Below, one piece after another: positions 11,895 through 52,442 of a stretch of DNA of 64,000 bases. Source of the stretch: a virus (Duplodnaviria > Caudoviricetes); IMG/VR virus record IMGVR_UViG_2773857766_000003, positions 1 to 64,000 of that record; one strand, 5' to 3'. The notes under the pieces were generated by a model. That model was given only the letters and a program-made list of their open reading frames with translations, was not told the origin of the DNA and searched no databases. A program made the position numbers and the translations under genes. The first letter of the stretch is position 1. The number at the start of each line of letters is the position of its first letter.

Positions 11895-11932
11895 AGTTGT
11901 CCCGCTTCCACGGACGGTTATCGGCTTGATTC

Positions 11933-22400: not shown

Positions 22401-25400
22401 TCACCGGCCGCGTTGCTCGGCCAGCACATCCTCCACGGCCTTGTTGAGCAGGTACATGCTGCGCTCGATTTCGGCATTCACCTCCTTCACGAGCTCGCGC
22501 TTGTTCGGGTCGCTGCCGGCCTGGATCTGCCGCCGCATCTTCACCAGGTCGGACACGCGCTTATCCAGCGCGCTGGCCGCCCCGTCCACGCGGGCCAGCG
22601 GCACGTCCAGCAGCACGGCCTCGGCCTCCTCACCTCTCGCCACGCGCCCCCTGGCCTCGGCCATGCTGGTGTTCACCCGCTTCAGGTTCTCGTAGTAGGA
22701 CGTGCTCTGGCCGTTCACGCCGCGGGTGTTGCCGTAAAACCGCCCCGCCAGGGTGATCTGATGCGGCGCCAGTTCCTCGCCCGTCACGGCGGCCGTCACC
22801 ATGTTGCCGGCCTTGGTCAGCTCGCGGCCCACGCCTCCGGTGAACTGCCCGAACAGGTACTCCAGCGCGTCCGGGTTGGGGCTCCACTTCCCGGGCTGCC
22901 ATTCGTTGCCGCCGGTGGCATCGTTGATGAGCCGGGCCACCCACCGCGCGGGAGGCGTCACCGAATCCTTGCCCATGGCGTGCCCGGGCTTCGGATCGAG
23001 CCCGCTGCGCTGCTCCTTGTAGATCTGCCGGCCGGTCCAGTCCTTGTTCTCCATCAGCGCCACCACCGGATCGAAGGGCGTGGGCGCCAGCATCTGCATG
23101 ATGTTGTCGGCCCCGCCGAGCGGGTTATAGGCGTTCAGGGCGATCATGGCCATGTCCGCCAGGTGACCGGCGCGGCTCTTCGTCGGATCGTCATGCATGC
23201 CGAACTCCACCAGCTTGCGGCCGATGTTCGGGAAGACGTGGAACCCCAGCGGCATGGGGATCGCCACGTAGTCCTGACGCGACAGCGGGATGATGATGCT
23301 GCGCTCCTTCACGAAGTCGGGGATCTTCTTCCACTCGTCGTCGGCTCCGCCGCCGCCCATGATGAGCGCGCCCGCCAGCCCCGACAGCATGCCCAGGGCG
23401 ACCCCGCCGGCCATGACCTTCCGCCCGGCGGGCCCGGCCAGGGTTTCCAGCATGCGCACGTTGCCCTGGATGGCGGCGTTCAGGAACGCGTAGTAGCTGC
23501 CCACCACGGACGTGTTCCGCCCTTTCCGGTTGAAGTTCACCGTGATGTTCTTGGCAAGGCTGGCCGCGGCCTCGCGCGACTGGCCGGCGTCCAGCGCAGC
23601 CTTGTAAGTCGCCAGGCGCGTGGAGGCCTCCAGCGTCTCATTGAAGTCGGACAGCCACTCCCCCACGCCGCGCACCATGGCCTTCGCGCCACCCTCGCCC
23701 TGCCGCTCGAGCGCCTTGCGCAGGGCCGCCGCGCGGTCCTCGGGCTTGGTGTAGAGGTCGCGATAGCCAGTAGTGCCGCCGTCCAGCTGCAGCTGCTCCC
23801 AGAGCCGGGCCCACGGCCCCTGCCCCGCCCCACTTTCGCGGCGCTCTCGCCGGAGATCCCGGTAGATGTCAAGCATGTTGCTGCGGATGTTCTTGAACAC
23901 CTCGCGCTGCCGGCCCGCCAACGGGGTGGACGACAGCTGCAGCAGCGAACCCTGCACGTCGCGCGCCAGGTTAAGCACGCCGAAAATCGGGTTGTACTGG
24001 GTGTTTACCGCCGCGAACCATCGCGTGAGGTGCCCCATCGTGCGGGTAAAGCGGTCCAGTTCCGTGGCGTCCAGGTTCTTCATGGCGAGCGCCAGGCGGG
24101 CCGCCCGCTCGTTGCGCTCGTTGAAGATGATGTGCTTGTCCTTGCCCCCGATGCGCAGCGTCAGCACGTTGTCGCGCAGGCGCGCCCCGATGTCCGGCAT
24201 GGTGCGCACCAGCCCCGTATCCGGGTCGATGGCCTTTTTCTTGGGCAGCTCCAGGGACCACAGGCTCTCGTCGGGGTTCTGCGCCGCGAGCACGTAGAGG
24301 CGCTTCATCACGTTGTTCTTCTCGCCGCGGGTCAGCGCCGCCTCGCGCTGCATCACCAGGTGGCTCAGGATGTTCGTCACCTTCTCGTTGGAGCCGGTGC
24401 GCCGCTTCGATGCGTCGCCCTTCGTCGAAAAGCCCTGCCCGATCGGATGAGCCTTGCTGTCCGGCCGGGCCTCGTCGCGGTGCAGCGGGACGTAGTGCTG
24501 GTAGGTCTTGCGCCAGGCCTCGATCGACAGGCGATCCATCAGGCCGTACTGCTCGAGCGTCTGCAGCGTGATGTTGTTCATCCGATCCACCCGGGTGGCC
24601 AAGGCGTCCATCACCTTGCGCTGCTCCGGGCTGTAGCCCCCCATGACGTTCTTGGCCTCGGCGTCGCTCATGCCGGACAGGGACAGGCGGTCCTCCTCCG
24701 TGCCCTTGAACGCTTCGGCGCTGTTCCAGCGGTCAGCCTCGGCCATGGCGAGCCCCAGCGAACGCTGGATGCCGCTGATGACCGAGCCGGACGCCCGGGC
24801 GTGCTGCAACTGCCGGCGCAGGTCCGCCACGGTCTTGGCGGCGTCGGCGCGCTTCTGGTCCAGCTCCTGCTTACTCGGGTTGCGCTCGGCCAGCACGCGG
24901 TTCGCCTCCGGAGCGTGCCGCGCGTGCAGGAAGCGCTCGAATTCCTCCATGCCCACCTTCGCGTCGTTCATGGCGGCCAGCAGCGGCCGCACCTCGTCGC
25001 GCAGGAAGTTGGCCGTGCGCTTCGCCACGCGCTTGTGGTACAGCTCCTCGCCGCGGTAGGCGTCGTTCGTCTCGCTGACGGTGCCGTTCAGAGCCTTGAT
25101 CTGGTCCTGGATGCGCTTCAGGTCGATGAACTTGTCCTGCCAGTTGTAGAGCCAGCTGTCCACCGCCTCGGGGCTGGTCAGCTGGCGCACGCGGTCCTGC
25201 AGGCGGGCCAGCAGCCCCTGCGCCGGCTGCGCTGCCTGTGCGGCACCGGCCGGCGCACGGCTGAACATTGCCGGGCCCGCCTGCTCCCCCTTGAACGCTT
25301 CCAGATCCTTTGCGTACAATACGCGCTGGACGAGGTTCGGTAAGCTATAACTGGTGCCAATTGCTTGCATCAGTCCTCTGGCTTCCTTGCCTCGTTTTTC

Positions 25401-28400
25401 TTTGGCGAAGCGCAACGCTTCCCGCATCTCCGCCTCGGAGATTCCCGCGATGGCACCCTCGCCAGCGTACATTGCCCCCCCTTCCCTCACCATGTCCAGG
25501 ATCGCGCGCGGCTGCTTCTCCGTGACGGTGGCCACCCAGTGGAAGCGCCCCTTCACCGAGCCCCGGTTGGGCTTGATGGCGATCACGAACGGCTGACCCT
25601 GCGGGTTGCTCATCGACGTGACGAAATTCAGGCTCGCGTCGCCGCGGCTGCCCTTGTTCCAAACCATGACCATGCGCGGGTTCGCCAGCTCGTCCAGGAT
25701 CTGCTTCATCTGCGACGGCTTCACGCCATGGTTGTAGAGCGCGTCCATGGCGTGCACACCGGCGTGCGCGGGCAGATCCGGCAGCCCCAACATCTTCATC
25801 ACCGCCGTGGACGATGGCAGCACCTCGTAGGTCTTCGTTTCGTCCAGCCCGCCACGGACGAACTGATCGACCAGCCCGGCCCACTTCGCCCGGGCCTGGG
25901 CCAGCGCGTCAGCTGGCAGGCTGAAGGCCAGGGCGGGCGCGCCGCCAGCGGCTGCCGGCGCTGCGTCTGCCTGGCGCCCGCGCTCGACCCAGCCCCGGGC
26001 CGGCAGGATGAAGTCCCGGACGATCTCGGCGTCCGTCATCCGCAAGTCGGCGAAGCCCGGGATGTGCGCCCGCGCCCAGCTGCGCACGGCGGCCACCGCG
26101 CGCTGCACGAAGCCCAGCTCCGGACGGGCCTGCGCCATCTCGGCCAGCACCTCCTCGGCCGCCTGCATCCGCTGGGCCCGGTCGCCGTAGTCCAGACCGT
26201 ACTCCGCCGCCTTGCGTCGCACCTCGGCGGGCCGCGCCTGGACGAGCTGCTGCAGCACCGCATCGAGCCCCGAGCCGAACACCCCGGCGAGCCCGTGGTG
26301 GCCTAGCGCCTCATGCATGAGCACGCGGGCCACGTCTTGGTCGCGCGGCAACTGCTCGGCCAGCAGGTACACCTTCCCGCCGAAGTAGAACCCCTCCGGC
26401 GAGCCCCCGGCGCCGCGGCTGCGCTGGCTCAGGTCGGCATCGCGCACCTGCTGCGGCACCTTCGGGTCGGCCATGTCGAACGCCACGACCACCTCGGGGC
26501 CGTTCGCCCACGCGGAGCGGATCGCAGCCGCGGCGGATTCCGTGCGGGCCACGGCCTGGGCCTTCGCCTCGTCGGGCACGGCCGGGGCCTCCTGCATCGT
26601 GCGCAGGAACGCGTCCACGTCGAAGTCATCGGCCGGCCCGGGCGCGCCGCGATCCTGCTGCACGTCCGGCAGGCGCATTTCGTGGCCGCCCACCACCACG
26701 ATGGCCTCGGCCGGCGACACGTCCATGTCGGCCTGCACGGGCCGTGCACGGCGTTCTGCCTCCGTGAGCCCCTGCCGTGCCTGCGTGGTGCGCGCTTCTA
26801 CCTCACCGGCGAGGGAGCGGTAGATGTCGTAGGGCGATCCGAACTCGAACTTCCGTTCCAGGGCCTCGGCTACCCGGGCCCGGCCCTCCTGCTCTCGCAG
26901 GGGCTCCAGCGCGGCGCGCGCCTTGTCGGCGTGCCGGCGCAGCGCGCCGATCATCCCTTTCATCGTGCGCTCGTCGGCCTTGAACGCTGCCAGGTTCTCA
27001 GGCGCGATGGTGCTTCGCAGCCACTTCTGCGCATCGAAGGCCATGTCCCGGATGTAGGCGTTGCGCTTTGCGCCGCTCTTGGGCATCCCGTAGAACCGCC
27101 GCTGCAGCTCGACCGCCACCGGGTCAAGCCAGTGCGTCGTGTTGTAGATCCACTGCATCTCGTTGCGGATGAGCCGGAACACGCCGCTGGGCTTGTCGCG
27201 CTCCGAGTAGGACAGCAGCCGCTCCATGGATTCGTACATGAGGGCATCGCGCACCACGGCGGCCGCCTTCTCAGCGTTCTCCATCAAGTCCGGGTGCTTC
27301 GCCTTCCACGCCTCCACCGCCCGCGCTTCGCCCTCGGCCATCTCGCGCAGGGTCTTGCGCACGCTGCTCGTGAAGTCGGCGTCCATGTTGCCGCCCAGCG
27401 CGAAGCCTTCACGGTACTGGATCGCGTGCTGGAGTTCATGCAGCAGCGTGGACAGCACCTCTCCTGGAGCGCGATCCGCGTTCAGCGTGACGGCCCGGTG
27501 GGTCTCGTCGTAGGAGCCGAACTCGCGGGCGTCTCGCCCCCTGCGGAAGTAAACCTTCAGCCCCCGCAGAAACGGATAGGCGGCGAACAGCGCCGGATGC
27601 CGCAGCACGTCGGTCAGCGCCTCCACCTGTCCATCCTTCACCTTCGCGATGTCGAACTCCACGCCGAAGCGGGCCCGCGCCACGCGGTCCACAAGGTTGG
27701 CCAGCGCCCCCTCTCGGGTGGTGCTGTAGGCCCGCAGCACGCCGTCGCCTTCGTCCAGCTGGGCGGTGTGCAGTTCGTCGTCCTGGGTGACGGTCGCCGC
27801 CTCGCGCACCTGGCGCTCCACCTCCACGAGATCCTCCGGCCGCGTCTCGGCCCGGCGGAATTCGGCGGTGTCATCGCTGATCTCGAAGCGCCAGCGGCCA
27901 TCCACGCCGCGGTGCCAGCCGGTTTCCTGCTGGATGACGGCGCTGGACATGCCGCTGCGCGCCATGGCCTCGGCGCGCTCCAGCTCGCCCAGGTCGGCGC
28001 TGCGTGCGTTCCTGCCGGCGAAGCTGAAGCGGATGTCCGGGTTCGACGGGTCGAACGTGCCGATGTTTCCAGTGGCCGACTTGACCTGAGCCTGTGCCAG
28101 CACCGCGAGCGATGCCCCACCGTTCGACTCGGCAAACCAGATCCCGTCGTACTGAACACCAGCACGGTCCAGCCACTTTCGCAGTTCCGGCTCCTGCTGC
28201 CAGACCGGCAGCGCTCCGCGCTCCGTCCCCGAGGTGGCCCACGATGCCGCGCCCGTCTCCTCGGCGTACTTGCGCCACAGCGCGAGGCCTTCCCCACGGG
28301 AAGCGTCGAAGGGCCGTTCAGCCTTGACGTACAGCGGATAGGTGGCACCGCCGGCCGCGTAGTGCTCGGCAAACGCAGGGTCTGGCGACAGGAAGATAAG

Positions 28401-31400
28401 GGCCCCGGGCCGGGACGGGGCCGCGTTCTCGTTGGGCGATCCGCGGTACATCACGAGCGGGCGGCCACCCGGCTTGCCGCTCTCCGTCACCTTGCTGTCC
28501 CCGAACCACTTCTTGAACGCCTCGCTCTCGGGCGCGGCTGCGCGGCTGAACATGGGGCGCTGCCCGCTCAGGGCGTCGTCCGCATCCTCGCCCAGCTCGA
28601 AGTTCTCGGCGCTGGCCTCCATCCGGGCGGATACCTCGCGGCGCTCGCGCTCGGCGCGCGCGTCGGCATCAGCCTTCGCGTCGGCTTTCGCCCGGGCCTG
28701 GGCGGACTCCTGCTGCGCGTCCTCGCGCGCTGTGACTTCCCGTGGGGTGTAGCTGGAAAGTTCGAGGTCTGGCGCTACTGCGCCACGGCCGTCTTCTGCA
28801 GCTCCGCGATCGCCTTGCCCATCCGGCTGTCCGCGGGGATCTTGGGCATCTTGCCCTTCGCCGCGTCCGCCATCTTCATCAGGGCGCGGCCCTGCTCGAT
28901 CTGGTTCCGGTCGCCGTGCTTGCTGCCCTGGCTCATCAGCACCGCGGCCAGCAGGGTCGCGGCCAGGGGCTCCTCGCTCGCCTTGCGGGGCTGCGGGTGC
29001 GGATTGTCCGGAAGGTTGGGGGCTTGCTGCATTGGTGGTCTGGGTGGTTGGTTGGCCGCTCAACGCGGAAAGGATGGCGTCAGGGCCGACCTGCTCGCCG
29101 AACATATCACCGCCCGCGCGCGTCGCCAAGGCCGCGGCCATGTATTCGCGCAGGGAGTCGGCCAGCCGGTCCCGGCCCACGGCCCGCGTCAGGTACTGGC
29201 CGGAATAGAGCATGCGCAGCACGCCCACGGTCATGGGGTCGGGCACGTCGCCCGTCACCATGTCCACCTGGTTGATCGCGTCGTAGAGGGATGCGCGCTC
29301 GCGCCGCGCCTTCTGCACCAGCCGGATGGCCTGAAGCAGGTTGCCCGTCACGTCCACCTGTGGGTTCACGGCGCCAGCGGCAGCCGCCTGGCGCAGATTC
29401 GCCCACTCGCCCGCCACGTCCTTCAGTGCCTCGCCGATGGCGCGGATGTCGTTGTCCGTGCTGCCGAACATGGATTCGACCAGATCGCCATCGCTGTAGG
29501 CCCTGTGCACGAGGGCAGCCTGCAGCCGCACCACGCCTGCGGGCGAGAGCGCGCCGCCGGCATCGAGCATGCCGGCCACGTCCTGGCCCTCGGCCTGCAG
29601 CTTGCCGACGAACGCCCGTGCGAAATCGCGGTTCGCGGCGCCGGCCAGGTCGCCCGCCTCGAGCACGTCGAGCACGCCGGTATCCAGCAGCGCGGCGTCC
29701 GTGGCGGCCTGCTCGGCGGCCGACAGCCCCAGGGCCTGGCTCTGGCTCTTGGCGCCCATGTTGGCCTGGTTGTCGCGCTCCGAGTAGAGGCGCACCAGCA
29801 TGGGCGCGCGCATGCCGGCGATCACCTGCGGGTCGATGCCGTGCATGGCGCTGTCGGCCATCAGCTCCTGCCGGTAGCTGTCGGCCGTGCCGCGCTCGTA
29901 TGCCGCGCGCAGCCCCGCGGTGCGCCCGTTGTTCAGCGCCTTCACCGTTCCCGGGTGTGCAGCGTCGAAGAGCGGGTTCACCCCGCCGTCGGCGAAGTTG
30001 GACGGCTGCACGTCGCCGGCTTCCATGACCGCGTACTGGAACGGCACGCGCTGGCCGTCGCTCATCACCGCCGTGTCGCCCCGGCCGATCGCGTGCGCGG
30101 CGTGCACCTGGTCGCCCACGGCGAACACCATGGGCGCACCCGTCTCGGGGCTGCGCGACGGACCCAGGCGCATGTAGTCGGGGCTCTGGGCCATGCCCTG
30201 CATCTGCACCACGCTGGCGGGTCGGGCCCGGTCGCGGTTCTGGATCTCGGGGGTAGCCGCGCCCACGGCGCCAGTGCCCTCGGGGTTCGTGCCGGCGCGC
30301 TTCGTCTTCACGGCGGCCCACTCGTTCTGCAGGCGATCCCACGCGGGCGAGCCCCGGCGCAGCCGCGCCACGTTCTCGCCGCGTTCGGCCACGAACTGCG
30401 GCCAGGTCTTGGCGCGAACTGCGCCAGGATCGAAGGCGTCCACCGCCGGCGCGGCGGCAGTCGATCGGGCACTTTCGGCAGCAGGCGCATACCCCGACCG
30501 GTCCCGGCTGCGCGCACGCGGCGCCCCGCGTTCCTGGATGAGCGCTTCCATGCTGCTGTTGTCCGCGCCCCAGTCCTCGGCCCGCTCCACGGGCTTGGGC
30601 AGGGGCGAGCGCTCGCGAGCCCCGCGAAAGCCGAAGTAGGCGTCCGCCACGCGGCGCACGGCCTGGCGCTCGCCGTCATCCAGCCCCGGCTCGCCGATCT
30701 TCTCCAGCGCGCCATCGAGCCGGCCCACGATCTGCACCGTGTTGCCCACGTCCTCGTCCAGCAGGTTCTGCAGGGCGTCGCGGATGCGCCGGGTGCGCAG
30801 CTGGGCGTCCACGCGGTGGATCGCCTCGCCGTCGATCTGCGCGGGCGCCGCCGCGGGCTGTTGCGTCTCGGTCGCCACGTTCAGCTCGAGCCAGGCGTCT
30901 TCCAACTGATCGCGCAGCTGCTGCACGTCGCCGGCCTGGGTGTAGGCCGAGCCAGCGCGCACGCGGTCCTGCAGCTCGCCCAGCGGGTCGGCTACCGGGC
31001 GGCGGTAGGCGCGCTCGAATTCCTGGCGTTCCTGTGGGGTCAGCCGATCCGGGGCGGTCGGAGCCGCAGCAGCGCCCGGCGCAGCACCAGCAGCCTCGGC
31101 CGGCGCGGCCTGCGCAGTGGCCACCAGCTCGGCGGCCTCGCGCTCCACGAAACGTTGCACATGGGCCGGCATACCGCCGCCCTCCAGTCGGGCCAGCAGC
31201 TCCACCGCGTTGCGCCGCGTGTCGCCGCTCGATCGCTGGGCTACAGCCCGCAGCTCCTGCTGCAGCTGGCTGCCATCCTGGGAAGCTCCCGCTGCGCTGG
31301 CATCTCCGGGCTGGGCTGCTTCCGCCGCGGGCGCAGCTTCGGGCCGCGGTGCCGCAGCACCGGCCGCTTCCTCGGGCGTCTCGCCGATGGCCTCCAGCTC

Positions 31401-32606
31401 CTCCTCTCGCGCGGCGGCACGCTCCACGCGCTCGGCCAGCACCGCCCGTTCGACCTTCTGCTCTTCGCTCAGGCCCACGCTGCCGTCGATGACCTCCAGC
31501 TCCGCCAGCCGCGTGACAGCCGCGGCCGTGTCGGCAGCGTCAGCCGCCGGGCCCGAGCGGCGCGCCGGCTGGTCCGGCAGCGAGTCGGGGAGCATGTCTT
31601 CCGCAGGCGTGCCCGCCTCTGCTGGTGGCGTGCCCTCTTCCGTCTTCGCAGCGGCGGCATCACCGCGGCGCAGCGCGGTCATAGCGCCCGACACGCCCGC
31701 GCCCGGCGCCGAACCGATGGCCGTTTCCACGGCTGTGCGGCCTACGTTCCGGGATAGCGGCCGCTGGTCGATGTCGCTGGCCTGGTAGTTCGTCGCGACC
31801 TGGGGCAGCACCTCCTCCGCCTGCTCGCCCAGCAACTCCGCCGCCACCGAGCGCGCCCCGGCCGCCAGCCCGCCACGGGCGCCGCCGCCGCCCACCACGG
31901 CGTGCTCAAGCCCGATCTTCCCGGACAGGAAGCCGGTGGCCGCGCCAACGGCGGCCGGAATGCGCGAGCGCTCAAGCGCCATGCGCTCCGCCTCCTCGCG
32001 GCTATGGCCCTTCTTCACGAGCGCGTCGCGGATGTCCTCGAAGGCCTCGCCCCGGGCTCCACCAGCATTGAGCACGGCATTGGTCACGCCCGCCGCCGTG
32101 GTGGCCGTGCCCGCCGCGACGGCCGCGCTGGCGCCGCCCGCGAGACGCGCGACCTGCGCCGCCTTGGCCGCGGCCACGCCCGGGAGCATGCTGGGCAGGT
32201 TGGTGGTGACGAACCGCGCCGCCAGCGCCGGATCGCTGCTGTAGGCCTTCGCGGCGGCCACGGCCTGGTCCACGATGGAATCCTGGTTCGCCTGCGCGAT
32301 CTGGGCGTCCGCGTCGGCGACCTTGCGGCGCAGGGCCTCGCTCTGCTCCCCGCGCCAGTGGTCGGCATTGTCCCGGAAGAAGGACGCAACCCCGGACTGC
32401 GGCGCGAACAGGTTGGGCACAGCCCCGGCGATGTTGTTCACGCCCTCGGCCAGCTGCACCACGGTATCGGTCGCTGCCTCGCCCCAGGTGCGCTCTGCGG
32501 GCTTCTTGGGCTGGGGCCTGAAGCCGGCCATCTCGAAAAGGTCGGAGCCGCCGCCGGCCGCAGCATCGCCATCACCTCGCGCCATCGCGAGCAAATCCTG
32601 GGACAT
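22401..32606 (-). CDS. Giant (~3400 aa) polyvalent internal virion/ejection protein
   Basis: ParB-like (IQNRDR..NGRTAG), ART-like (FKKWFGDSKV..PLVMYRG), LPD23-like (TGWHRGVDGRWRFEISD, HELQH), second zincin (HEALGH), LPD38-like C-terminus (TVNFNRKG, YAFLNAAIQG). Start MSQDLL follows GAGG. Confidence 0.85.
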   Translation of the reverse strand: MSQDLLAMARGDGDAAAGGGSDLFEMAGFRPQPKKPAERTWGEAATDTVVQLAEGVNNIAGAVPNLFAPQSGVASFFRDNADHWRGEQSEALRRKVADADAQIAQANQDSIVDQAVAAAKAYSSDPALAARFVTTNLPSMLPGVAAAKAAQVARLAGGASAAVAAGTATTAAGVTNAVLNAGGARGEAFEDIRDALVKKGHSREEAERMALERSRIPAAVGAATGFLSGKIGLEHAVVGGGGARGGLAAGARSVAAELLGEQAEEVLPQVATNYQASDIDQRPLSRNVGRTAVETAIGSAPGAGVSGAMTALRRGDAAAAKTEEGTPPAEAGTPAEDMLPDSLPDQPARRSGPAADAADTAAAVTRLAELEVIDGSVGLSEEQKVERAVLAERVERAAAREEELEAIGETPEEAAGAAAPRPEAAPAAEAAQPGDASAAGASQDGSQLQQELRAVAQRSSGDTRRNAVELLARLEGGGMPAHVQRFVEREAAELVATAQAAPAEAAGAAPGAAAAPTAPDRLTPQERQEFERAYRRPVADPLGELQDRVRAGSAYTQAGDVQQLRDQLEDAWLELNVATETQQPAAAPAQIDGEAIHRVDAQLRTRRIRDALQNLLDEDVGNTVQIVGRLDGALEKIGEPGLDDGERQAVRRVADAYFGFRGARERSPLPKPVERAEDWGADNSSMEALIQERGAPRARSRDRSGYAPAAESARSTAAAPAVDAFDPGAVRAKTWPQFVAERGENVARLRRGSPAWDRLQNEWAAVKTKRAGTNPEGTGAVGAATPEIQNRDRARPASVVQMQGMAQSPDYMRLGPSRSPETGAPMVFAVGDQVHAAHAIGRGDTAVMSDGQRVPFQYAVMEAGDVQPSNFADGGVNPLFDAAHPGTVKALNNGRTAGLRAAYERGTADSYRQELMADSAMHGIDPQVIAGMRAPMLVRLYSERDNQANMGAKSQSQALGLSAAEQAATDAALLDTGVLDVLEAGDLAGAANRDFARAFVGKLQAEGQDVAGMLDAGGALSPAGVVRLQAALVHRAYSDGDLVESMFGSTDNDIRAIGEALKDVAGEWANLRQAAAAGAVNPQVDVTGNLLQAIRLVQKARRERASLYDAINQVDMVTGDVPDPMTVGVLRMLYSGQYLTRAVGRDRLADSLREYMAAALATRAGGDMFGEQVGPDAILSALSGQPTTQTTNAASPQPSGQSAPAAPQGERGAPGRDPAGRGADEPGQQARRPEPDRAGPRPDEDGGRGEGQDAQDPRGQPDGQGDRGAAEDGRGAVAPDLELSSYTPREVTAREDAQQESAQARAKADAKADADARAERERREVSARMEASAENFELGEDADDALSGQRPMFSRAAAPESEAFKKWFGDSKVTESGKPGGRPLVMYRGSPNENAAPSRPGALIFLSPDPAFAEHYAAGGATYPLYVKAERPFDASRGEGLALWRKYAEETGAASWATSGTERGALPVWQQEPELRKWLDRAGVQYDGIWFAESNGGASLAVLAQAQVKSATGNIGTFDPSNPDIRFSFAGRNARSADLGELERAEAMARSGMSSAVIQQETGWHRGVDGRWRFEISDDTAEFRRAETRPEDLVEVERQVREAATVTQDDELHTAQLDEGDGVLRAYSTTREGALANLVDRVARARFGVEFDIAKVKDGQVEALTDVLRHPALFAAYPFLRGLKVYFRRGRDAREFGSYDETHRAVTLNADRAPGEVLSTLLHELQHAIQYREGFALGGNMDADFTSSVRKTLREMAEGEARAVEAWKAKHPDLMENAEKAAAVVRDALMYESMERLLSYSERDKPSGVFRLIRNEMQWIYNTTHWLDPVAVELQRRFYGMPKSGAKRNAYIRDMAFDAQKWLRSTIAPENLAAFKADERTMKGMIGALRRHADKARAALEPLREQEGRARVAEALERKFEFGSPYDIYRSLAGEVEARTTQARQGLTEAERRARPVQADMDVSPAEAIVVVGGHEMRLPDVQQDRGAPGPADDFDVDAFLRTMQEAPAVPDEAKAQAVARTESAAAAIRSAWANGPEVVVAFDMADPKVPQQVRDADLSQRSRGAGGSPEGFYFGGKVYLLAEQLPRDQDVARVLMHEALGHHGLAGVFGSGLDAVLQQLVQARPAEVRRKAAEYGLDYGDRAQRMQAAEEVLAEMAQARPELGFVQRAVAAVRSWARAHIPGFADLRMTDAEIVRDFILPARGWVERGRQADAAPAAAGGAPALAFSLPADALAQARAKWAGLVDQFVRGGLDETKTYEVLPSSTAVMKMLGLPDLPAHAGVHAMDALYNHGVKPSQMKQILDELANPRMVMVWNKGSRGDASLNFVTSMSNPQGQPFVIAIKPNRGSVKGRFHWVATVTEKQPRAILDMVREGGAMYAGEGAIAGISEAEMREALRFAKEKRGKEARGLMQAIGTSYSLPNLVQRVLYAKDLEAFKGEQAGPAMFSRAPAGAAQAAQPAQGLLARLQDRVRQLTSPEAVDSWLYNWQDKFIDLKRIQDQIKALNGTVSETNDAYRGEELYHKRVAKRTANFLRDEVRPLLAAMNDAKVGMEEFERFLHARHAPEANRVLAERNPSKQELDQKRADAAKTVADLRRQLQHARASGSVISGIQRSLGLAMAEADRWNSAEAFKGTEEDRLSLSGMSDAEAKNVMGGYSPEQRKVMDALATRVDRMNNITLQTLEQYGLMDRLSIEAWRKTYQHYVPLHRDEARPDSKAHPIGQGFSTKGDASKRRTGSNEKVTNILSHLVMQREAALTRGEKNNVMKRLYVLAAQNPDESLWSLELPKKKAIDPDTGLVRTMPDIGARLRDNVLTLRIGGKDKHIIFNERNERAARLALAMKNLDATELDRFTRTMGHLTRWFAAVNTQYNPIFGVLNLARDVQGSLLQLSSTPLAGRQREVFKNIRSNMLDIYRDLRRERRESGAGQGPWARLWEQLQLDGGTTGYRDLYTKPEDRAAALRKALERQGEGGAKAMVRGVGEWLSDFNETLEASTRLATYKAALDAGQSREAAASLAKNITVNFNRKGRNTSVVGSYYAFLNAAIQGNVRMLETLAGPAGRKVMAGGVALGMLSGLAGALIMGGGGADDEWKKIPDFVKERSIIIPLSRQDYVAIPMPLGFHVFPNIGRKLVEFGMHDDPTKSRAGHLADMAMIALNAYNPLGGADNIMQMLAPTPFDPVVALMENKDWTGRQIYKEQRSGLDPKPGHAMGKDSVTPPARWVARLINDATGGNEWQPGKWSPNPDALEYLFGQFTGGVGRELTKAGNMVTAAVTGEELAPHQITLAGRFYGNTRGVNGQSTSYYENLKRVNTSMAEARGRVARGEEAEAVLLDVPLARVDGAASALDKRVSDLVKMRRQIQAGSDPNKRELVKEVNAEIERSMYLLNKAVEDVLAEQRGR

Positions 32607-32712
32607 AGACACACCTCTGAAGTGAACCCTGGAAGGCTGGCAGGCTTGGCACGCAGCCCGTCGATAGGGGTCTGATACAGTTCCCGCGCACGAAAACTCA
32701 GGGGGAAGCAAG

Positions 32713-33420
32713 ATGCGCTACGCGATTTCGGCAATGGTTCTGGCGGTGCTGTCAGGCTGCGCAAGCACTGCGAAATGGCAGCACCCGGCGCGAGCGGGCG
32801 AAGGCCACGACGGCGCGACGATGGCGCTGGCCGAGTGCGAAAGCTACGCTGCTGGACGAACGCCGATGCCCAAATTGCAGGCGTACATGCCCGCACCGGC
32901 GCCGACCGGATACAACACCACGGGCACCGTTTCGAGCTATGGAAACGTCAGCACGTTCCAGGGAAACACCACGCCGTCCGGCGGTTTGGCTTCTGGATAT
33001 GCGACGGGTGCGAATATGGGTGCGAATATCGCCAACGCCTACGCCGTGTCAGCCGCCCGCCAGCGCGAAGCAGAGCTAACCGGAGCGTGCATGCGAACTC
33101 AGGGCTGGATCGACACCAGCACTCCGGAGGGTCAGGAAAAATTCAGGGCGGCATCGGCCCAGCGCCAAGCCCCCAAAGGTCAGGCCACAGAGCAATCCGC
33201 CACGCGCGAATGGGCCACTGCGGTTTCCACATTCTTGGACACGGAAGCAGCTCGCCCCGGCGGGATCGATTACCGAGCGGATGCTGTCAAGCAGGCGGCC
33301 CTCGACCGCTACGTGAAGGAGCTCGCCAACGATCCCAAGAACGACCATCAGAAAATGTCGTGGTTCCTCATCGAAGCCCACAAGCGGGTACTGGCCGACA
33401 TCTCCAGCTCCGCCAAATAA
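32713..33420 (+). CDS. Lipoprotein moron with a C-terminal scaffold-like domain; superinfection-exclusion candidate
   Basis: Lipobox LSGC; antisense to the late operon; extended -10 TGATACAGT at 32673-32681; last ~65 aa align with the scaffold. Confidence 0.8.
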   Translation: MRYAISAMVLAVLSGCASTAKWQHPARAGEGHDGATMALAECESYAAGRTPMPKLQAYMPAPAPTGYNTTGTVSSYGNVSTFQGNTTPSGGLASGYATGANMGANIANAYAVSAARQREAELTGACMRTQGWIDTSTPEGQEKFRAASAQRQAPKGQATEQSATREWATAVSTFLDTEAARPGGIDYRADAVKQAALDRYVKELANDPKNDHQKMSWFLIEAHKRVLADISSSAK

Positions 33421-33443
33421 CCGCCAGCTTGGATCGGCAGGGA

Positions 33444-35003
33444 TTATTTTGAAATGCCCTGCTTCTGCAGTTCCTTGATTACCTCGTCCACCGTCATGCC
33501 ATATTTTTTGGCCGTGGCGTCGAGGTTTTCCTGAGACATGGCATTTCGCACCTGGGCCTTGACAGCGTCGCCGGCTTGGCGCGAGGCGCGGTCTTTCTGG
33601 ACCTTCGCGCGATTGAAACGCACCAGGCCCTCGTCTGTGTCCCGGATGGAGGGGTTGTCCGCCATGAATTCCTGGAACTCCTGTTCCGCGGCCGGGTTCC
33701 GCTTGACCTTCTCCTTCCCAGAAAGCGGGTCGGTGGACGTTTCTCCGAACGCCTTCTGCACTTTGGTGGGGTCGTAGTCGTACTTCAGCTTGGAAGTGTC
33801 CGAGCCAGGGGTTTGCAGGATGCCCGCACGCACCGCGCGCAGTTGGGTCGGCGTCATCTTCGGATCGGTCTCCCGTGCCAGCGCCTCGCGCACGTCGCGA
33901 AGTTCGCGCTTCTCAGCCAGGCGCTCACCCCGGTCAGCCATGGCCAAGCCGTGCGCCGCCGCCGCCCGGCCGTCGGCGTTGTCGGCTCGGCGATCAGCAT
34001 TGTCCGCGCGGGCCTCAGCGCGCAGCCGCAGTTGGTTCAGCAGCTCGTGCTGGCTGTATTGGTAGAGCGCCATCGGATCGTCCAGCGCCTTCAGCATGGC
34101 CAGCGCCTCGCCGCGGTCTTTGAGCGTGATAGGCGGCATCGGCTTCCCGTCCAGCCCCGTGCGCTGCACCAACAGCTGCCCGTCCTTCCCCGCCTCGATG
34201 CCCGTCACCTTATCGCCGCTGGGCACGAACCGGTTGTAGACGTCGGCCAGCTGGGTGTAGTCGCCCGCAGCCAGCGCCGCGGCGGCCTTCCCTGCAGCCT
34301 CCTTGCGGGCCGCCGCCTGCAGCTGGATCTGGATGTGACTCTGCGCCATGTGGTCCTTGGCCGCTTGATCCGCTTCCTTGGCATAGCCCGCCTGAGCAAG
34401 CGCCAGTGCGCGTTCCCGCGTGTTCGCCAGGTAGTCGTCCGCCGTGGCTTGCCGCGGTTGACCATCCGGGCCCACGAGAGCCTGCTTCAGCTTCGCCCCC
34501 ATCTCCGCGTCGATCCGCTCCACGCCGTCCTCGCGCGCCCACTGTTTCTCCTCTCGCCCCTGCTTGCGCGCGGCGAACAGCCCCTGCTGCGCCTGCAGGC
34601 TCATTTGCAGGCCGCGGGCAGGATCGGTCCGACCGATGGCGTCCGCCATTGCCCGCATACGCAGGTTGTCCTGCTGATCGCGGCCCATGCTGCCGGCAGT
34701 ACGCTCGCCCAAGAAGTCGGTGACGCCCTGCATGGCCACCGTCCGGGCCTCGCCGGCCGAGTTCTTCGCCACATAGGCCTTCGCGCCGTCATCGAATGTG
34801 ATGTTGTCGAAACCCTGCTTCGCCAGACTTTCCAGCTGCTGGCCCTGGTCTGCCGTGAAGCCTGTAGATTCCACGGGCCGCGCGCTCGCCACTTCATCAA
34901 GCGCACGCTGCTGCTGTGCCTGCTGGAACTGCCCGTGGAAGTTCTGAAAAATCTGCTGGCCCTGCAGGATACCTGCCGCCAGTCCGCCGCGTGGTGCTGC
35001 CAT
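33444..35003 (-). CDS. Probable ejection (internal core) protein
   Basis: Ala/Gln-rich and helical; lies between the small and giant ejection genes. Confidence 0.7.
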   Translation of the reverse strand: MAAPRGGLAAGILQGQQIFQNFHGQFQQAQQQRALDEVASARPVESTGFTADQGQQLESLAKQGFDNITFDDGAKAYVAKNSAGEARTVAMQGVTDFLGERTAGSMGRDQQDNLRMRAMADAIGRTDPARGLQMSLQAQQGLFAARKQGREEKQWAREDGVERIDAEMGAKLKQALVGPDGQPRQATADDYLANTRERALALAQAGYAKEADQAAKDHMAQSHIQIQLQAAARKEAAGKAAAALAAGDYTQLADVYNRFVPSGDKVTGIEAGKDGQLLVQRTGLDGKPMPPITLKDRGEALAMLKALDDPMALYQYSQHELLNQLRLRAEARADNADRRADNADGRAAAAHGLAMADRGERLAEKRELRDVREALARETDPKMTPTQLRAVRAGILQTPGSDTSKLKYDYDPTKVQKAFGETSTDPLSGKEKVKRNPAAEQEFQEFMADNPSIRDTDEGLVRFNRAKVQKDRASRQAGDAVKAQVRNAMSQENLDATAKKYGMTVDEVIKELQKQGISK

Positions 35004-36355: not shown

Positions 36356-36357
36356 CG

Positions 36358-37224
36358 TCAGATCGCGATCGCTGCGGAAACACCGATGCCCAGCATCGCG
36401 CCCGTGTTGGCGCCGGCCGTGGCCTGGCTCTGCTGGTGCGCCTGGCTCTGCGCGGACCATGCGTTGGTCGCCGAGTTGGTCGCGGCGTTCGCCGCCCCGG
36501 CGGCCTGACCGTAGCCGGCATTGAGCCCCGCAAGCCCCGTATTCGCGATGGTCTGCCCGGCTGCGCCGTAGCCCGCCGTGGCAGCGGTGGTCTGCATACC
36601 CATGGTGGGGTAGCCGGCCAGGGCGTTGCTCGCGCGATCGGTCAACGCGCGGCCCTCCGCGCGGGCGGCGGTGCGCGCCCCGTTCTTGGCCTGGGCGAGC
36701 GCGAGCCCCGTCTGCGCCACCAGCGCATTGCCCGCGGCACCGTATTTCCCATCCGCAGGGTTGATGCCCATGCGCGACATCTCTGCGGCCTGGGTGCGCT
36801 GCGCGCCGGTGTAGGCCTGCGACACGTCCGCCGCGGCTTGGCCGGCCAGCTCCTCGCGCTTCGCCTCCGTGTTGAAGGTCGCCGCGTCTTGGATCATCCG
36901 GTCCTGCTGGCCGGTCAGCTGGTCGCGACGGCCCAGCGCGTAATCGCGGTCTGCCTGAGACTGCTCCCAGGCCTTGCGCGAGGTGTCCAGCGCGAACTGG
37001 GTCTGCTCCTTCTGGAGCGGAGCCATGTCGTTCGTGTTCTGGATGATCTGCCGGACCATATCGTCCTGCACGCCCAGGTTTCGCACCTGAGCCTCCACCA
37101 GCCGCGGATCGGGCGCGGGCGTGCCGCCACCCTTGCCGCCCTCCAGGGACATGCCTCCGCCGGCCCGGGGCCGGAAGGCCCGGTCCGGAAGGAGGTCGAA
37201 ATCAGTTCGATGCCAGCGAGACAT
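36358..37224 (-). CDS. Small ejection protein (P22 gp7-like)
   Basis: N-terminal leader then EGGKGGG; Ala/Gly/Gln-rich; hydrophobic C-terminus. Confidence 0.7.
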   Translation of the reverse strand: MSRWHRTDFDLLPDRAFRPRAGGGMSLEGGKGGGTPAPDPRLVEAQVRNLGVQDDMVRQIIQNTNDMAPLQKEQTQFALDTSRKAWEQSQADRDYALGRRDQLTGQQDRMIQDAATFNTEAKREELAGQAAADVSQAYTGAQRTQAAEMSRMGINPADGKYGAAGNALVAQTGLALAQAKNGARTAARAEGRALTDRASNALAGYPTMGMQTTAATAGYGAAGQTIANTGLAGLNAGYGQAAGAANAATNSATNAWSAQSQAHQQSQATAGANTGAMLGIGVSAAIAI

Positions 37225-37633: not shown

Positions 37634-37673
37634 GCCCGCAGGGTGGCAGGCTTGGTACGGAGCCCAGAAACAA

Positions 37674-37697
37674 CAAAGCCCGCGGAAGCGGGCTTTG
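37674..37697 (-). terminator. Rho-independent terminator after parA-like gene
   Basis: CAAAGCCCGC-GGAA-GCGGGCTTTG. Confidence 0.75.
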
Positions 37698-37713
37698 CGA
37701 AGCGGAAAGCTAC

Positions 37714-38754
37714 TTATAGGACGGCAGCCAAATACTCCAGTTCCTTGCGGTACTTGGTTTGTGATTGATTTACCTGCAGACGACTACCGTTAACAGTGTG
37801 GAACTGTCCTACCTTCAATTTTGGAATGGGAATACCTTCTGCCCCACTGATGCGACCTGCAGACATGAAGTCGTCGGTGATTACGAAAGCATCGGCCGGA
37901 TCTTCCACGTCGAACAGATGTGGATACTTGGCCGCGGTGCCATACGCACGTTCCACATACATTTGCGATGCGCGGTCTTTGACCCCTTTTTTAGGACTCC
38001 GGGCGCCCACCATTGTCATAACAATTGCCGCGACCTTGGGAGTTTCCATGCCACCGGCCCTCGCCCCCCAGACGTTAAAGTCGCTGGCAGGGTTTGAGAG
38101 CATGTCAAGCGTGATATCTAAAGACTCGATTGAGTGCTCGTCCACACGGACAGGGATGATGAGCGCGTCAGCGGCGCACCATGCCAGATGAGTACCGCCG
38201 CCATAGAAAGGGCTGCAATCCATCAGAATCTTGCTGCAACTCTTCGATTCTGCCTCGTCGTTCAACACACCTTTCAGGCTCAGTAGGATGTTTCTCACGG
38301 CTTTTTCATTGCTCGACGCCATGGCCTGCTGGAGCTGCTGATATAGCGCAGAGGGGAAGGAAAAAAGCTGCCCATCGCCCGGCACAAAATACCCGGATTT
38401 AGCCCCTTTAAAATGATCGTTGAAGTTGCTAATACGGTAAGAAATATCCTCCGGAACTTCTCCAAATGCAGGACCCAGCACCTTTGGGCGCAGTGCATCG
38501 CCAATTGTGATTTCCGCTTTCTGACCGCGCATCAGAGATTCGGTCAAGTTCTTTTGTGGACACAGGTCAGCAACCAACGTGGCGTAGTGACGGGTGAAAA
38601 GCCATGCCAAGTTGAAACTGAGAGTGGATTTACCAATGCCTCCGCGGAGATTTGAAACAGCGTACGAACGCCGCCCAAACTTCACAACTGCTTCGTAGCC
38701 CTCTTCTATCGACTGGTCATGGTTGGCAATGATTCGGCTCAGTCCAGATCCCAT
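37714..38754 (-). CDS. Orphan ParA/MinD-family ATPase (low-GC moron)
   Basis: NLRGGIGKST deviant Walker A, ADLCPQKNLT, MDCSP, ADALIIPV. Confidence 0.88.
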   Translation of the reverse strand: MGSGLSRIIANHDQSIEEGYEAVVKFGRRSYAVSNLRGGIGKSTLSFNLAWLFTRHYATLVADLCPQKNLTESLMRGQKAEITIGDALRPKVLGPAFGEVPEDISYRISNFNDHFKGAKSGYFVPGDGQLFSFPSALYQQLQQAMASSNEKAVRNILLSLKGVLNDEAESKSCSKILMDCSPFYGGGTHLAWCAADALIIPVRVDEHSIESLDITLDMLSNPASDFNVWGARAGGMETPKVAAIVMTMVGARSPKKGVKDRASQMYVERAYGTAAKYPHLFDVEDPADAFVITDDFMSAGRISGAEGIPIPKLKVGQFHTVNGSRLQVNQSQTKYRKELEYLAAVL

Positions 38755-38766
38755 AAAAAATTCCCC

Positions 38767-38885: not shown

Positions 38886-38945
38886 TGAAGGCGGCTTGCG
38901 GTTGGGCCAAAGTACAGTCCGAAAGCGCTCCAAGCCATTCCTTCC

Positions 38946-50083: not shown

Positions 50084-51199
50084 TCAGCGGGGGGCTGCAG
50101 CGGCATCCACGGCGAACAGGCCTTGGTCGTGGCTCACGCCGTCCCAGTTGAACGTGGTCTTCTTGAAGCCGAAGATGGAGGACGTGGTGATGACCACCTG
50201 GTTCCCGTTGTCGCGGGTTTCTTCGTGCCAGCCGTAGCGCATGCCGGTGCCCGGGCTGCCAAACGCCAGCACCCCCGCCTGTGCGCCCATGAAGAGAGCG
50301 CGCGCGGTGGACACGTTGCCGCCCGCGCCGTGGTTGTTGTGGCGGATGACGTTGCGATGGCTGTGCAGCACCACGTTGCGGTGCATGCCGAGGGCCGATC
50401 GGAACAGCGGAGACTTCGCGCCGAGCGATGCGGCGGCCGCCTTCTGCAAATCCATCCACGCGCCCGTGGAAGTGTCGTTGCGCAGGTCGTCCTCGTGCCA
50501 GGTGTGCATCACCATGACGAAGACCTCCTCGCCGTCCACCACGCACGGCTGCAGAACCGGGATGTTGGTGGAGCCGCCGCCCTGAGTGTCGGCACGGGTG
50601 CGTGCGTCGCCCACGAGCTTCAGCGTCATCTTGTCGGTGGCGTCGATGTTGGCCGTGCTGGTGGCGTCGCCTGCGAACAGCTGGTGGTTGACCGTGGGAG
50701 CGGTCAGCTTGTTGTTCGCCCGGCCTTGGTAGCCCAGCGGCAGCAGGAAGTTCTCGTTCACGCCGCGCGAGCCCGAGAGGTAGGAGAACGACAGTTCGTC
50801 CTGGAAGCGGCCCCACCAGCCAGCCTGCTGCTGCTTGGCCCGCATGCGCAGATCGTGCAGCGTGCGCTTGCGCGACATACGGCCGCCGGTGTTCACGCCG
50901 GCGCGGGCCTGGTCGATATACAGCTCATCGCTGTAGAACTTCTGCGCTTCTTCCTTGCCGGTGAGGGTGTTGTCACCTTCGACCGGCGCCATGCGCAGTT
51001 CGGTCAGCAGGTCGTAGGTGATGAGTTCACCGGCCTCGGATTCCAGTTCCGTGAGGATCTGGATGGGGGTCTTCGCGCCCTGGCCGACGGCCGCGAAACG
51101 GCGGCCGAAATAGGACTGCTGGGACACATCGAGGGCCAAGTCGCCGGAGAAGCGCTTGACGGCACGCGGGCTGTTCACGCCCGTGCTGGTTTTCGCCAT
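50084..51199 (-). CDS. Major capsid protein (N4-gp56/DUF4043-like)
   Basis: GDNTLTGKEE..IDQAR..KRTLHDLR, RALFMGAQA, FGFKKTTF. Confidence 0.88.
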   Translation of the reverse strand: MAKTSTGVNSPRAVKRFSGDLALDVSQQSYFGRRFAAVGQGAKTPIQILTELESEAGELITYDLLTELRMAPVEGDNTLTGKEEAQKFYSDELYIDQARAGVNTGGRMSRKRTLHDLRMRAKQQQAGWWGRFQDELSFSYLSGSRGVNENFLLPLGYQGRANNKLTAPTVNHQLFAGDATSTANIDATDKMTLKLVGDARTRADTQGGGSTNIPVLQPCVVDGEEVFVMVMHTWHEDDLRNDTSTGAWMDLQKAAAASLGAKSPLFRSALGMHRNVVLHSHRNVIRHNNHGAGGNVSTARALFMGAQAGVLAFGSPGTGMRYGWHEETRDNGNQVVITTSSIFGFKKTTFNWDGVSHDQGLFAVDAAAAPR

Positions 51200-51252: not shown

Positions 51253-51456
51253 TCAGGCTTTCACGATGGCAGGCTTGGTACGGGCCGGCACCTTCTTGAA
51301 GGAAATTTCCGGCGCCGCGCACACCACCATGCGCGCGGTCTGGCCGGACTTCTCCACCATCTGGATCACCACGCCCGGCAACTCGAGAACGTCCCCGGTG
51401 CGCAGCTCCATGTGGACGCGGCGCACGGTGTCTTGTGAGGTGTTGGCAGTGGTCAT
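51253..51456 (-). CDS. CsrA/RsmA-like small protein
   Basis: VHMELRTGDVLELPGVVIQMVEKSGQTARMVVCAAPEISFKK follows the CsrA five-strand pattern ([41 protein letters not shown]). Confidence 0.7.
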   Translation of the reverse strand: MTTANTSQDTVRRVHMELRTGDVLELPGVVIQMVEKSGQTARMVVCAAPEISFKKVPARTKPAIVKA

Positions 51457-52442
51457 CAGCCCCTCAGGTAGCGTTCGCGCTTGTCGGGCGAGAGGCCGGC
51501 CAGCGCGCGCTCGTACTCCAGGCCAGACAGCTTGTCCAGGTCCGAGAACTCGTCGCCGGATGGGTCAGCGTCACCGCCGCCACCGGGCACGTCCGCCAGG
51601 TTGGTGACCACGGCGCTGGCGTCCGGCTTGCGCGGCGCGGGAGCCGCCGTCTTGCCGGTCGCGATGCCATGCAGCGCCACCACGCGTTTGTGGCCTTCCT
51701 CGAGGAACCAGCGGTGCGGCTTCGCGGCGTTCTCCGGGGCGGCGGCCAGCGCTTTCACGAACACATCCAGATCGGCCGCTTTCGCCTGGTCCTTCGCATA
51801 GTCCACCAGGCCCAGCTCCGCCTTCGTCGCGGCGTCTGTGACGAAGGTGTTGATGGCCGACACCCACGCATTCGATTCCGCCTGCTCCTGCATCTCGCGT
51901 GCCACCTGCGCCCGGGTTTTGGCTTCGCGCAGGTCCGCACGCTGTTCCTGCAACTCGTCCAGTTTGGCGTGGTACTCGGACGCATCCACCTCTCCGTTGT
52001 CGAACTTCGTGCGCAGGTCGGTCAGCGCGGCCTTGTTGGCTGCCACCTTGTCATCGTAGTCCGCGGGCAGCTCGGCCTTGTAGGTGGGATGCGGAGCTGG
52101 GGCCGGCGCGGGCTTGGCACCGGGGACTGCCGCTGCATCTTCAGCTGGCGCGGGCGCTGCAGCAGGCGCGGGCGCATCCGCCGCTGCAGCTGCAGGAGCT
52201 GGCGCAGGCGTAGGCGAAGGGGCTGCAGCCTGGGCAGGTGCGGGCGCGGGCGCGGCAGCGCGGCCCTTCTCGCCTTCGCCCTCGCCCTCGCCGCCCTCTT
52301 CGTCATCGTCTAACTCGCCGCGGCCAATCTCACGCAGTGCAGCGTCGTTGTCCTCGTCGGGGTTGTAGTCGTCGTCTTCCATCGCCGCGCGCTCGGCGTC
52401 GGAGAGCAGGCGCAGGCGATCGTCGTCCTTGTCCATGGTCAT
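51456..52442 (-). CDS. Scaffolding protein
   Basis: Acidic N-terminus, Ala/Pro linker, coiled coil; lies upstream of the capsid gene. Confidence 0.75.
   Translation of the reverse strand: MTMDKDDDRLRLLSDAERAAMEDDDYNPDEDNDAALREIGRGELDDDEEGGEGEGEGEKGRAAAPAPAPAQAAAPSPTPAPAPAAAAADAPAPAAAPAPAEDAAAVPGAKPAPAPAPHPTYKAELPADYDDKVAANKAALTDLRTKFDNGEVDASEYHAKLDELQEQRADLREAKTRAQVAREMQEQAESNAWVSAINTFVTDAATKAELGLVDYAKDQAKAADLDVFVKALAAAPENAAKPHRWFLEEGHKRVVALHGIATGKTAAPAPRKPDASAVVTNLADVPGGGGDADPSGDEFSDLDKLSGLEYERALAGLSPDKRERYLRG

Follow-up and report, generated by a model that had tools for sequence, protein, structure and literature searches.

Phage-encoded exclusion proteins and the locus under study

The outer-membrane lipoproteins Llp of phage T5 and Cor of phages T1 and phi80 are phage-encoded and exclude superinfecting phages by masking the receptor FhuA, and the sieA gene of phage P22 is located within the late region, close to the ejection genes. 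SieA, encoded by the prophage of this temperate, short-tailed phage, is an envelope protein that blocks DNA entry via the ejection proteins, and the changes that allow escape from it are in the ejection proteins gp16 and gp20 (PMC10883804). In the Streptococcus phage TP-J34, the lipid-anchored and exposed protein Ltp, made of small helical domains, some of them in tandem, blocks DNA injection by binding the virion tape measure protein (PMC3952083). The present analysis concerns a gene (32713..33420, + strand, 235 amino acids) found in a stretch of 64,000 nucleotides of Caudoviricetes DNA (IMG/VR record IMGVR_UViG_2773857766_000003, positions 1 to 64,000), hereafter the window, the provirus record containing it being 78 kb long and its host a bacterium of the Acidovorax type. 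The gene encodes a lipoprotein whose C-terminal domain is homologous to part of the scaffold-like assembly protein encoded in the same window, and a full-text literature search, supplementary files aside, turned up no account of a scaffold domain borne by a lipoprotein, in agreement with an earlier reading of the letters alone (hereafter the sequence-only reading), which knew of no description of this fusion.

The relevance of a scaffold domain to phage entry comes from P22. P22 shells formed without scaffold lack gp7, gp16 and gp20, certain scaffold mutations prevent gp16 incorporation, and incorporation is mediated by N-terminal parts of gp7 and gp20 (PMC8402733). The way in which scaffold brings ejection proteins into procapsids is still open, even in P22, where only the requirement for scaffold is established (PMC8402733). 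The sequence-only reading had invoked this requirement and the location of sieA-type exclusion genes beside ejection genes, and this background from P22 stands.

A scaffold-derived domain in a predicted exported lipoprotein

The lipoprotein is composed of a signal peptide with lipobox (residues 1–16), an N-terminal module containing Cys42 and Cys126 (N-module, residues 17–135), a linker (residues 136–165) and a scaffold-derived C-terminal helical domain (residues ~166–232), the core of which (33208..33408, +; residues 166–232) carries a W167...V226 signature and was delimited by BLASTP, profile search and shared conserved positions. About 28 of 64 residues had been counted by hand as identical between this C-terminus and the scaffold-like protein encoded at 51456..52442 (−, 328 amino acids). 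It was verified by BLASTP that lipoprotein residues 139–228 align with scaffold residues 166–256 with 36 of 93 positions identical (39%, E 1e-10), around 30 of the identities being located from the tryptophan onward, a figure near the hand count. Both proteins also matched the same profile, phrog_8246, the scaffold-like protein over its full length (E 3.4e-90) and the lipoprotein through residues 152–232 (E 1e-7, profile positions 170–244 of 325), so that profile positions 1–169 and 245–325 are missing from the latter. Judged by these alignments, the domain homology between lipoprotein and scaffold is beyond chance. The full scaffold architecture, comprising an acidic N-terminus, a hairpin, a C-terminal helix-turn-helix tail and a gene position between portal and capsid, is absent from the lipoprotein, which on sequence grounds is a domain relative, and not a member, of the phrog_8246 or Lessievirus-type scaffold-like family.

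The LSGC lipobox noted in the sequence-only reading was recovered. The N-terminus MRYAISAMVLAVLSGC opens with a basic n-region, followed by a hydrophobic core and then by the lipobox L-S-G-C, which ends in Cys16 and conforms to the general lipoprotein signature [LVI][ASTVI][GAS]C. Across 29 aligned homologues, Cys16 and Cys42 are conserved at 90% or more, and Cys126, Met127, Gly131 and Trp132 are invariant. The residue at position +2 after the lipobox cysteine is Ala and not Asp, which by the E. coli sorting rule suggests the outer membrane as the destination of this lipoprotein. The conservation of Cys42 and Cys126 besides the lipid-anchor cysteine fits a disulfide formed in an oxidising compartment, and such a bond in the N-module is probable; the scaffold-like protein has no cysteine at all. 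A Shine-Dalgarno-like GGGGGAAG is found about 6 nt 5′ of the ATG.

The gene has homologues and is maintained by selection. A word-index search with the lipoprotein returned 36 proteins at E≤0.001, 33 of them of the lipoprotein type and three scaffold-like, and in these three the domain is 44–57% identical to the lipoprotein over the shared part, nearer to it than that of the resident scaffold. In Acidovorax sp. PRC11 (locus L007), a copy 92% identical is accompanied by neighbours identical in kind, and the ratio of nonsynonymous to synonymous substitution rates (dN/dS) between window and L007 was lowest in the N-module (0.040), higher in the C-terminal domain (0.085) and highest in the linker (0.291), so that purifying selection acts on both modules. 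A public gene call assigned to the window itself (P0008, 246 amino acids) keeps to the lipoprotein frame as far as residue ~140 and then continues in the +1 frame, as if one base had been added near the GGTCAGGAAAAATTC stretch at 33130..33140. Since contigs from four RNA-library runs contain no indel relative to the window across 24000–42000 and the reading frame is intact in all relatives, the 235-residue frame stands. Searches outside this set returned little: the N-module as a query of the ESM Atlas hit no named cluster (best score 0.82, under lead level), and none of 50,697 phage records was matched in tblastn by the lipoprotein, by the 519-residue protein encoded next to it or by the N-terminal 350 residues of the giant protein on its other side.

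The predicted structures agree with the alignments. AlphaFold2 models were obtained for the lipoprotein (29-row alignment, mean predicted local distance difference test score (pLDDT) 78.5) and for the scaffold-like protein (78 rows, mean pLDDT 81.1). The former shows an N-module with a helix (32–49), a hairpin (66–89) and a long helix (92–129), a linker modelled with low confidence (pLDDT <50 at residues 154–158) and three C-terminal helices (156–180, 191–206 and 215–234). In the latter, a disordered, acidic, Ala/Pro-rich first third is followed by a folded core (residues 120–260, pLDDT 96–98) in which a helical hairpin (129–148 and 154–206) is capped by a small domain (219–233 and 243–258), the subdomain shared with the lipoprotein spanning residues ~176–258. 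According to the models, the lipoprotein retains the small domain together with the last part of the long helix and is without the hairpin (scaffold 129–206), which is likely the dimerising element. The scaffold-like protein additionally ends in two short confident helices with conserved basic residues (308–316 and 319–327, within residues 300–328), which are absent from the lipoprotein and recall the coat-binding helix-turn-helix tail of the P22 scaffold.

Known structures resembled these models only loosely. Profile searches of PDB sequences (alignments A1 and A3) yielded nothing at E<0.05, and neither model had a Foldseek match in PDB or BFVD at E≤0.001. In VIA-align, the chain that matched lipoprotein model residues 150–229 best was 6xfj_A of InvH (Z 8.7, root-mean-square deviation (rmsd) 3.9, 74 residues aligned; next row Z 6.6), and scaffold model residues 176–257 matched the same chain (Z 7.5, rmsd 3.3, 74 aligned). 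These Z-scores are under the level at which helical matches are reliable, so the InvH match, to which Foldseek gave E 0.45, is a lead only. The matched ranges of the two models differ by the offset of the BLASTP alignment, which means that the models agree with each other over the homologous stretches.

Domain family, architectures and origin

The distribution of the domain was examined with a profile of eight domain segments (A2), which was searched against 1.84 billion cluster representatives and retrieved 487 at E≤1e-3, 176 of them at E≤1e-10. When 266 domain segments from 261 proteins were sorted by motif and by eye, 206 fell in scaffold-like proteins, typically of 300–350 amino acids with the domain at about 170–250, and 53 in the lipoprotein type. 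Four segments belong to a type B, which has a Sec signal peptide and a two-cysteine module of another kind (P0123, P0143, P0145 and P0195), and one segment each to a form with an N-terminal membrane anchor (P0115), to a further signal-peptide form (P0210) and to a fragment (P0215). Going by these sequences, the domain is joined to at least four different N-terminal export modules and is their constant part. In several lipoproteins (P0004/L006, P0010, P0112) it is present twice in tandem. Comparison of 49 exported with 194 scaffold copies showed the same residue at ≥70% in both sets at 18 of 71 positions, six of which are polar (D186, D190, K193, D198, N210 and E221).

Some related forms stand apart from this picture. 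The tandem second copies (L006 9980..10900; P0010, P0112, P0113 and P0032) constitute a clade of their own, ~19–23% identical to scaffold domains. The N-module, with the motif C...CM..GW, is found alone in L008 (10001..10483, 160 amino acids) and, in L009 (9971..10705), with a very divergent helical C-terminal domain. A domain-less or divergent N-module adjoins a repressor-like gene in an Alcaligenaceae genome bin, and two N-module matches in other genomes (G022 and G183 being those listed) contain one in-frame TAG.

Domain hits were left out if their E-value exceeded 1e-5 or if they covered under 46 of 71 profile positions, and for the tree, exported and scaffold copies were thinned at 85% and 62% identity, respectively, leaving 48 and 101 rows (149 in all). 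On this tree the label "exported" needs three changes, whereas shuffled labels need 40.9 on average, and none of 500 shuffles was as low. A tree uniting all exported copies had a likelihood above that of the free quick search and was not rejected by the approximately unbiased (AU) test (p-AU 0.739), and a first free tree (FastTree, midpoint root) spread the exported copies over nine pure clades. Because most forks are unresolved in an alignment of 71 columns, the label-change count and the AU test were relied on, and with so few columns they show that the exported copies cluster and are compatible with a single origin, without proving it. These results suggest that the domain was captured once by an exported protein and that the exported form is an old copy evolving separately.

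The claim of the sequence-only reading that the lipoprotein carries a copy of the scaffold domain stood as far as homology is concerned; the implied derivation from the resident protein did not. When 194 scaffolds were ranked against the exported domain, the resident scaffold came 139th in PRC11, first in L006 and 164th in P0015/P0096. The pair of the window lies outside this ranking because identical segments were merged, its identity being the 39% given by BLASTP, and the window domain has a median identity of 0.42 and a best identity of 0.52 to all scaffolds. On this sequence evidence, the domain is not a recent copy and is not derived from the resident scaffold.

The donor family was called scaffolding from its genomic position and from a database name. 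The scaffold-like gene immediately precedes that of the major capsid protein (50084..51199; PF13252, E 1.9e-55), its homologue gp46 in Burkholderia phage JC1 (Lessievirus) has the portal gene on one side and the CsrA and capsid genes on the other, and the homologue P0073 bears the UniRef name "Scaffolding protein". The designation used by the sequence-only reading is consistent with both, and the role itself is a putative one. A second, broken scaffold-like gene is present at the start of the window (1..1024, −) as two halves (open reading frames 194..1024 and 1..384), with a frameshift just 5′ of the VDYAKD motif and a 3′ end that diverges at the record start. It shares 79% nucleotide identity with the resident gene (39–1012 versus 51467–52427), is preceded by a copy of a 15-bp late-gene motif at 1060–1074, and looks like a remnant of another related prophage.

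Genomic context and transcription signals

The gene order of the window matches that of JC1. The lipoprotein gene adjoins the gene of a giant virion protein (22401..32711, −; 3436 amino acids, likely start ATG at 32606) and, on the other side, that of a 519-residue putative internal or ejection protein (33444..35003, −), which is syntenic with JC1 virion proteins. The − strand order is a GNAT-like 143-residue gene, the gene of a 288-residue virion structural protein (36358..37224, −; phrog_8003, E 1.6e-68), a methyltransferase/PAPS-reductase fusion (phrog_424, E 1.2e-83), the 519-residue gene and the giant open reading frame. Purified JC1 virions contained gp64, gp68 and the DarB-like giant gp69 (PMC9144972, Table 6). 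By synteny with JC1, the neighbours of the lipoprotein gene are putatively virion-internal proteins, as the sequence-only reading had placed them, and its statement that the gene is antisense to the late operon holds for all of them, the lipoprotein gene being on the + strand.

The lipoprotein gene behaves as a moron, being antisense, lower in third-position GC content (GC3), located in a variable slot and preceded by a conserved extended −10-like element. Its GC3 is 0.72, versus 0.81 for the 519-residue gene, 0.87 for the 288-residue and methyltransferase/PAPS-reductase genes and 0.88 for the giant gene, and among close relatives it is present in some and absent from others at this slot. The gene lies between the 519-residue and giant genes in the window, L007 and L006; in L004 it is beyond the 3′ end of the giant gene, ~1.2 kb away, and in L005 between homologues of the 288-residue and a 653-residue protein, not beside the giant gene. 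In L037, a type B exported gene directly follows the stop of a giant homologue (54% identical over 933 residues). There are three insertion positions in all, and at every one of them the gene is antisense to the structural genes. The giant virion-protein gene is flanked by an exported-domain gene in five of the six contexts with a standard domain, and all recovered contexts of this kind lie within the virion module of Bcep22-like phages. In close relatives the slot has different antisense cargo, namely an unrelated 93-residue lipoprotein (LATGC) together with a 187-residue open reading frame in L021 (11216..11497, −, and 11504..12067, −), and a 117-residue open reading frame in L023 (11199..11552, −).

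The 288-residue protein had been named as a candidate partner of the lipoprotein. Among phage records, it had 12 matches (Burkholderia, Erwinia and Serratia) and the scaffold-like protein 13 (Burkholderia, Ralstonia and Microcystis); since the two sets overlap only partially, the phyletic pattern points to no partner.

An extended −10-like element, TGATACAGT, is located at 32673..32681 (+), 40 nt before the ATG. The sequence-only reading had attributed to the gene its own extended −10, and, in line with this, TGnTACAnT is conserved in four of the eight loci examined (window, L007, L006 and L004, 34–40 nt before the ATG), L006 sharing it at 62% protein identity and L004 at a different insertion site; it was not found upstream in L005, L037, L008 and L009, and the consensus scan missed the element of the window. 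A hairpin with T-rich runs on both strands, between the stops of the lipoprotein and 519-residue genes (33421..33440), is a possible two-way terminator. The structural genes have a different signal, a 15-bp motif, GTRCCAAGCCTGCCA, with nine occurrences at no more than one mismatch versus 0.02 expected, always on the structural-gene strand (starts on the − strand at 32638, 37644, 43899, 47882, 51267, 53156, 58939, 61266 and 1060). One copy (32638..32652, −) is just upstream of the giant gene, which means that the lipoprotein gene sits between two transcription units.

RNA-library data cover the locus. Eleven runs of one organism contain at least 93% of the sampled words of 32300–33900, and contigs from four runs (three studies) cover every bin of 24000–42000. 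The X3 and X4 contigs 31221–35430 and 31574–34524 are deeper than neighbouring contigs and an X9 contig begins at 32702; neither observation was counted as evidence. Elsewhere in the window, a ParA-like moron of low GC content (37714..38754, −) had short-contig depths of ~600–1200 in X1 and X9, versus 15–90 for neighbouring contigs, and may be strongly expressed, contig depth being a poor measure.

Proposed function and alternatives

As to function, the proposal of the sequence-only reading, in which the lipoprotein would be a decoy in the cell envelope that binds ejection proteins of superinfecting relatives and thereby excludes them, is retained as a tentative one to which we give somewhat less than an even chance. 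The captured part, a four-helix domain in the lipoprotein, corresponds to the globular subdomain that the scaffold-like protein has in podophages of the Bcep22/Lessievirus type. According to the model, in the procapsid this small domain of the scaffold would dock the internal (ejection) proteins, a task for which P22 needs its scaffold. Captured once by an exported protein and tethered by lipid in the periplasm, the domain copy might bind, through the same surface, ejection proteins leaving a superinfecting related virion. The DNA conduit would then not be built, and exclusion would take place at the DNA-entry step with adsorption unblocked. The loss of the hairpin, the six polar positions, the tandem domain and the adjacency to the giant gene favour a phage-directed role, none of them being decisive. 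The wider proposal, that temperate Bcep22-like podophages turned the ejection-protein docking part of the scaffold into a family of exported, membrane-tethered traps, is a doubtful one.

Several observations weigh against the decoy model. The scaffolding role of the donor family comes from gene position and a UniRef name, and the docking of internal proteins by any part of it is hypothetical. JC1 gp46 was detected in caesium chloride (CsCl)-purified virions (four unique peptides; score 4.14, the second lowest in Table 6 of PMC9144972), and its presence there, even at a low score, means that the family may not be a pure scaffold. For the domain, no binding partner was predicted or shown, and the resident-scaffold ranks (139, 1 and 164 of 194) give no sign of tracking a co-evolving target. 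Additionally, N-modules lacking the domain exist (L008; G005, G022 and G183), and neither the lipoprotein nor five further exported forms matched Pfam, NCBIfam or PADLOC. The gene was found in one of the eight viral contigs retrieved with the 288-residue protein, which is the contig of L006, and the full fusion in one of 401 sampled genomes of the host family, that of PRC11, in a sample with the N-module alone in three genomes and the scaffold in four. Concerning expression in the prophage, which the decoy model would entail, a consensus scan requiring a −35 element found no sigma-70 promoter on the + strand before the gene, and the RNA-library contigs, being strandless, with one depth figure each and possible DNA carry-over, show neither lysogenic expression nor its absence.

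The lipoprotein could instead have a host-directed or otherwise phage-unrelated role in the envelope, i.e., lysogenic conversion, the domain being a sturdy helical module for protein–protein interaction or self-association that would recognise no phage protein; this is an unlikely reading that nevertheless has to be taken seriously. It is in line with the lack of a known partner for the domain, with the existence of the N-module by itself, with the unrelated cargo, including another small lipoprotein, in the slot of relatives, and with the best fold match being the helical domain of InvH, a generic helix-binding fold of envelope lipoproteins, although the Z-scores of that match do not reach the reliable level for helical proteins. 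However, it is the domain and not the anchor that remains constant over at least four export architectures and is tandemly duplicated, its six conserved polar positions are common to the scaffolds, and the standard-domain contexts are all in the virion module, five of six beside the giant gene.

Another explanation would be a poison subunit: if the scaffold-like protein were partly carried in virions and ejected, the lipoprotein domain could pair with the homologous domain and disturb entry. The detection of gp46 in JC1 virions (PMC9144972) and the frequency of self-association among homologous domains speak for it, but contaminating procapsids could explain so low a score, and the lipoprotein is without the helical hairpin, the apparent usual dimerising element; this explanation is improbable. 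Still more improbable is a periplasmic factor for the phage's own lytic cycle, timing lysis by sensing ejected proteins or barring progeny from injecting into the dying cell. Lysis timing upon secondary infection is exemplified by T4 RI, the anatomy of the lipoprotein would suit this role as well as that of a decoy, and the gene is within the late region, where RNA-library contigs span it together with late genes. On the other hand, it is antisense to each neighbouring late gene and is preceded by a promoter-like element instead of the 15-bp late motif, and its absence from most relatives indicates that it is not part of the core cycle. Finally, chance similarity or a non-functional open reading frame, to which the frameshifted gene call P0008 could have pointed, has a negligible probability and is refuted by the BLASTP E-value of 1e-10, the 33 lipoprotein-type homologues among 36 hits, the dN/dS of 0.04–0.085 and the indel-free contigs of four RNA-library runs.

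If the decoy model were true, this natural dissection would reveal which module of a podophage scaffold docks ejection proteins, a part long sought, and assembly-chaperone mimicry, in the form of a periplasmic mimic of a cytoplasmic assembly factor, would be a new design of prophage defence with a bearing on host-range prediction for Acidovorax, Delftia and Burkholderia phages. Should no phage be excluded, there would still be a virion-assembly domain redeployed to the cell envelope several times over. In either case, an exported and independently folding copy of a scaffold subdomain offers a small handle with which to test the proteins that this subdomain binds.

Comparison with known systems

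The lipoprotein shares single features with several described systems and differs from each of them in others. With SieA it has in common a prophage origin and a predicted envelope location, and it would affect entry through ejection proteins, as SieA does; however, SieA is an integral inner-membrane protein for which no scaffold similarity is reported (PMC10883804), whereas the protein described here is a lipoprotein with a soluble, scaffold-derived domain, and no sequence relation between the two was seen. Ltp is a parallel in anatomy, its lipid anchor and small, partly tandem helical domains being alike. It differs in its Gram-positive host and its siphophage target, and its domains are helix-turn-helix-like and, to our knowledge, do not derive from a phage assembly protein. 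Llp and Cor act by receptor masking and contain no copied phage protein domain. These four proteins are the nearest analogues in function, yet we know of no sequence relationship between the lipoprotein and any of SieA, Ltp, Llp or Cor, nor of an assembly protein from which any of the four would derive.

Two further comparisons concern the domain itself. The alternative scaffold CpmB of the Staphylococcus aureus pathogenicity islands (SaPI) is a case in which a mobile element reuses a scaffold-like interaction motif against a phage; it differs in being cytoplasmic and acting on capsid size, whereas the lipoprotein is in the envelope and its proposed target is entry. The type III secretion pilotin InvH (PDB 6xfj and 6xfk), which binds the secretin InvG according to the PDB entry title, is likewise a lipoprotein with a helical C-terminal domain of ~75 residues. 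Its identity of 15%, a Z-score under the reliable range and the lack of a secretin context at this locus restrict the likeness to a resemblance in fold. By analogy with these systems, an envelope moron or exclusion lipoprotein encoded by a prophage would be of a known kind, and what appears new and unexpected here is the scaffold as donor of its domain.

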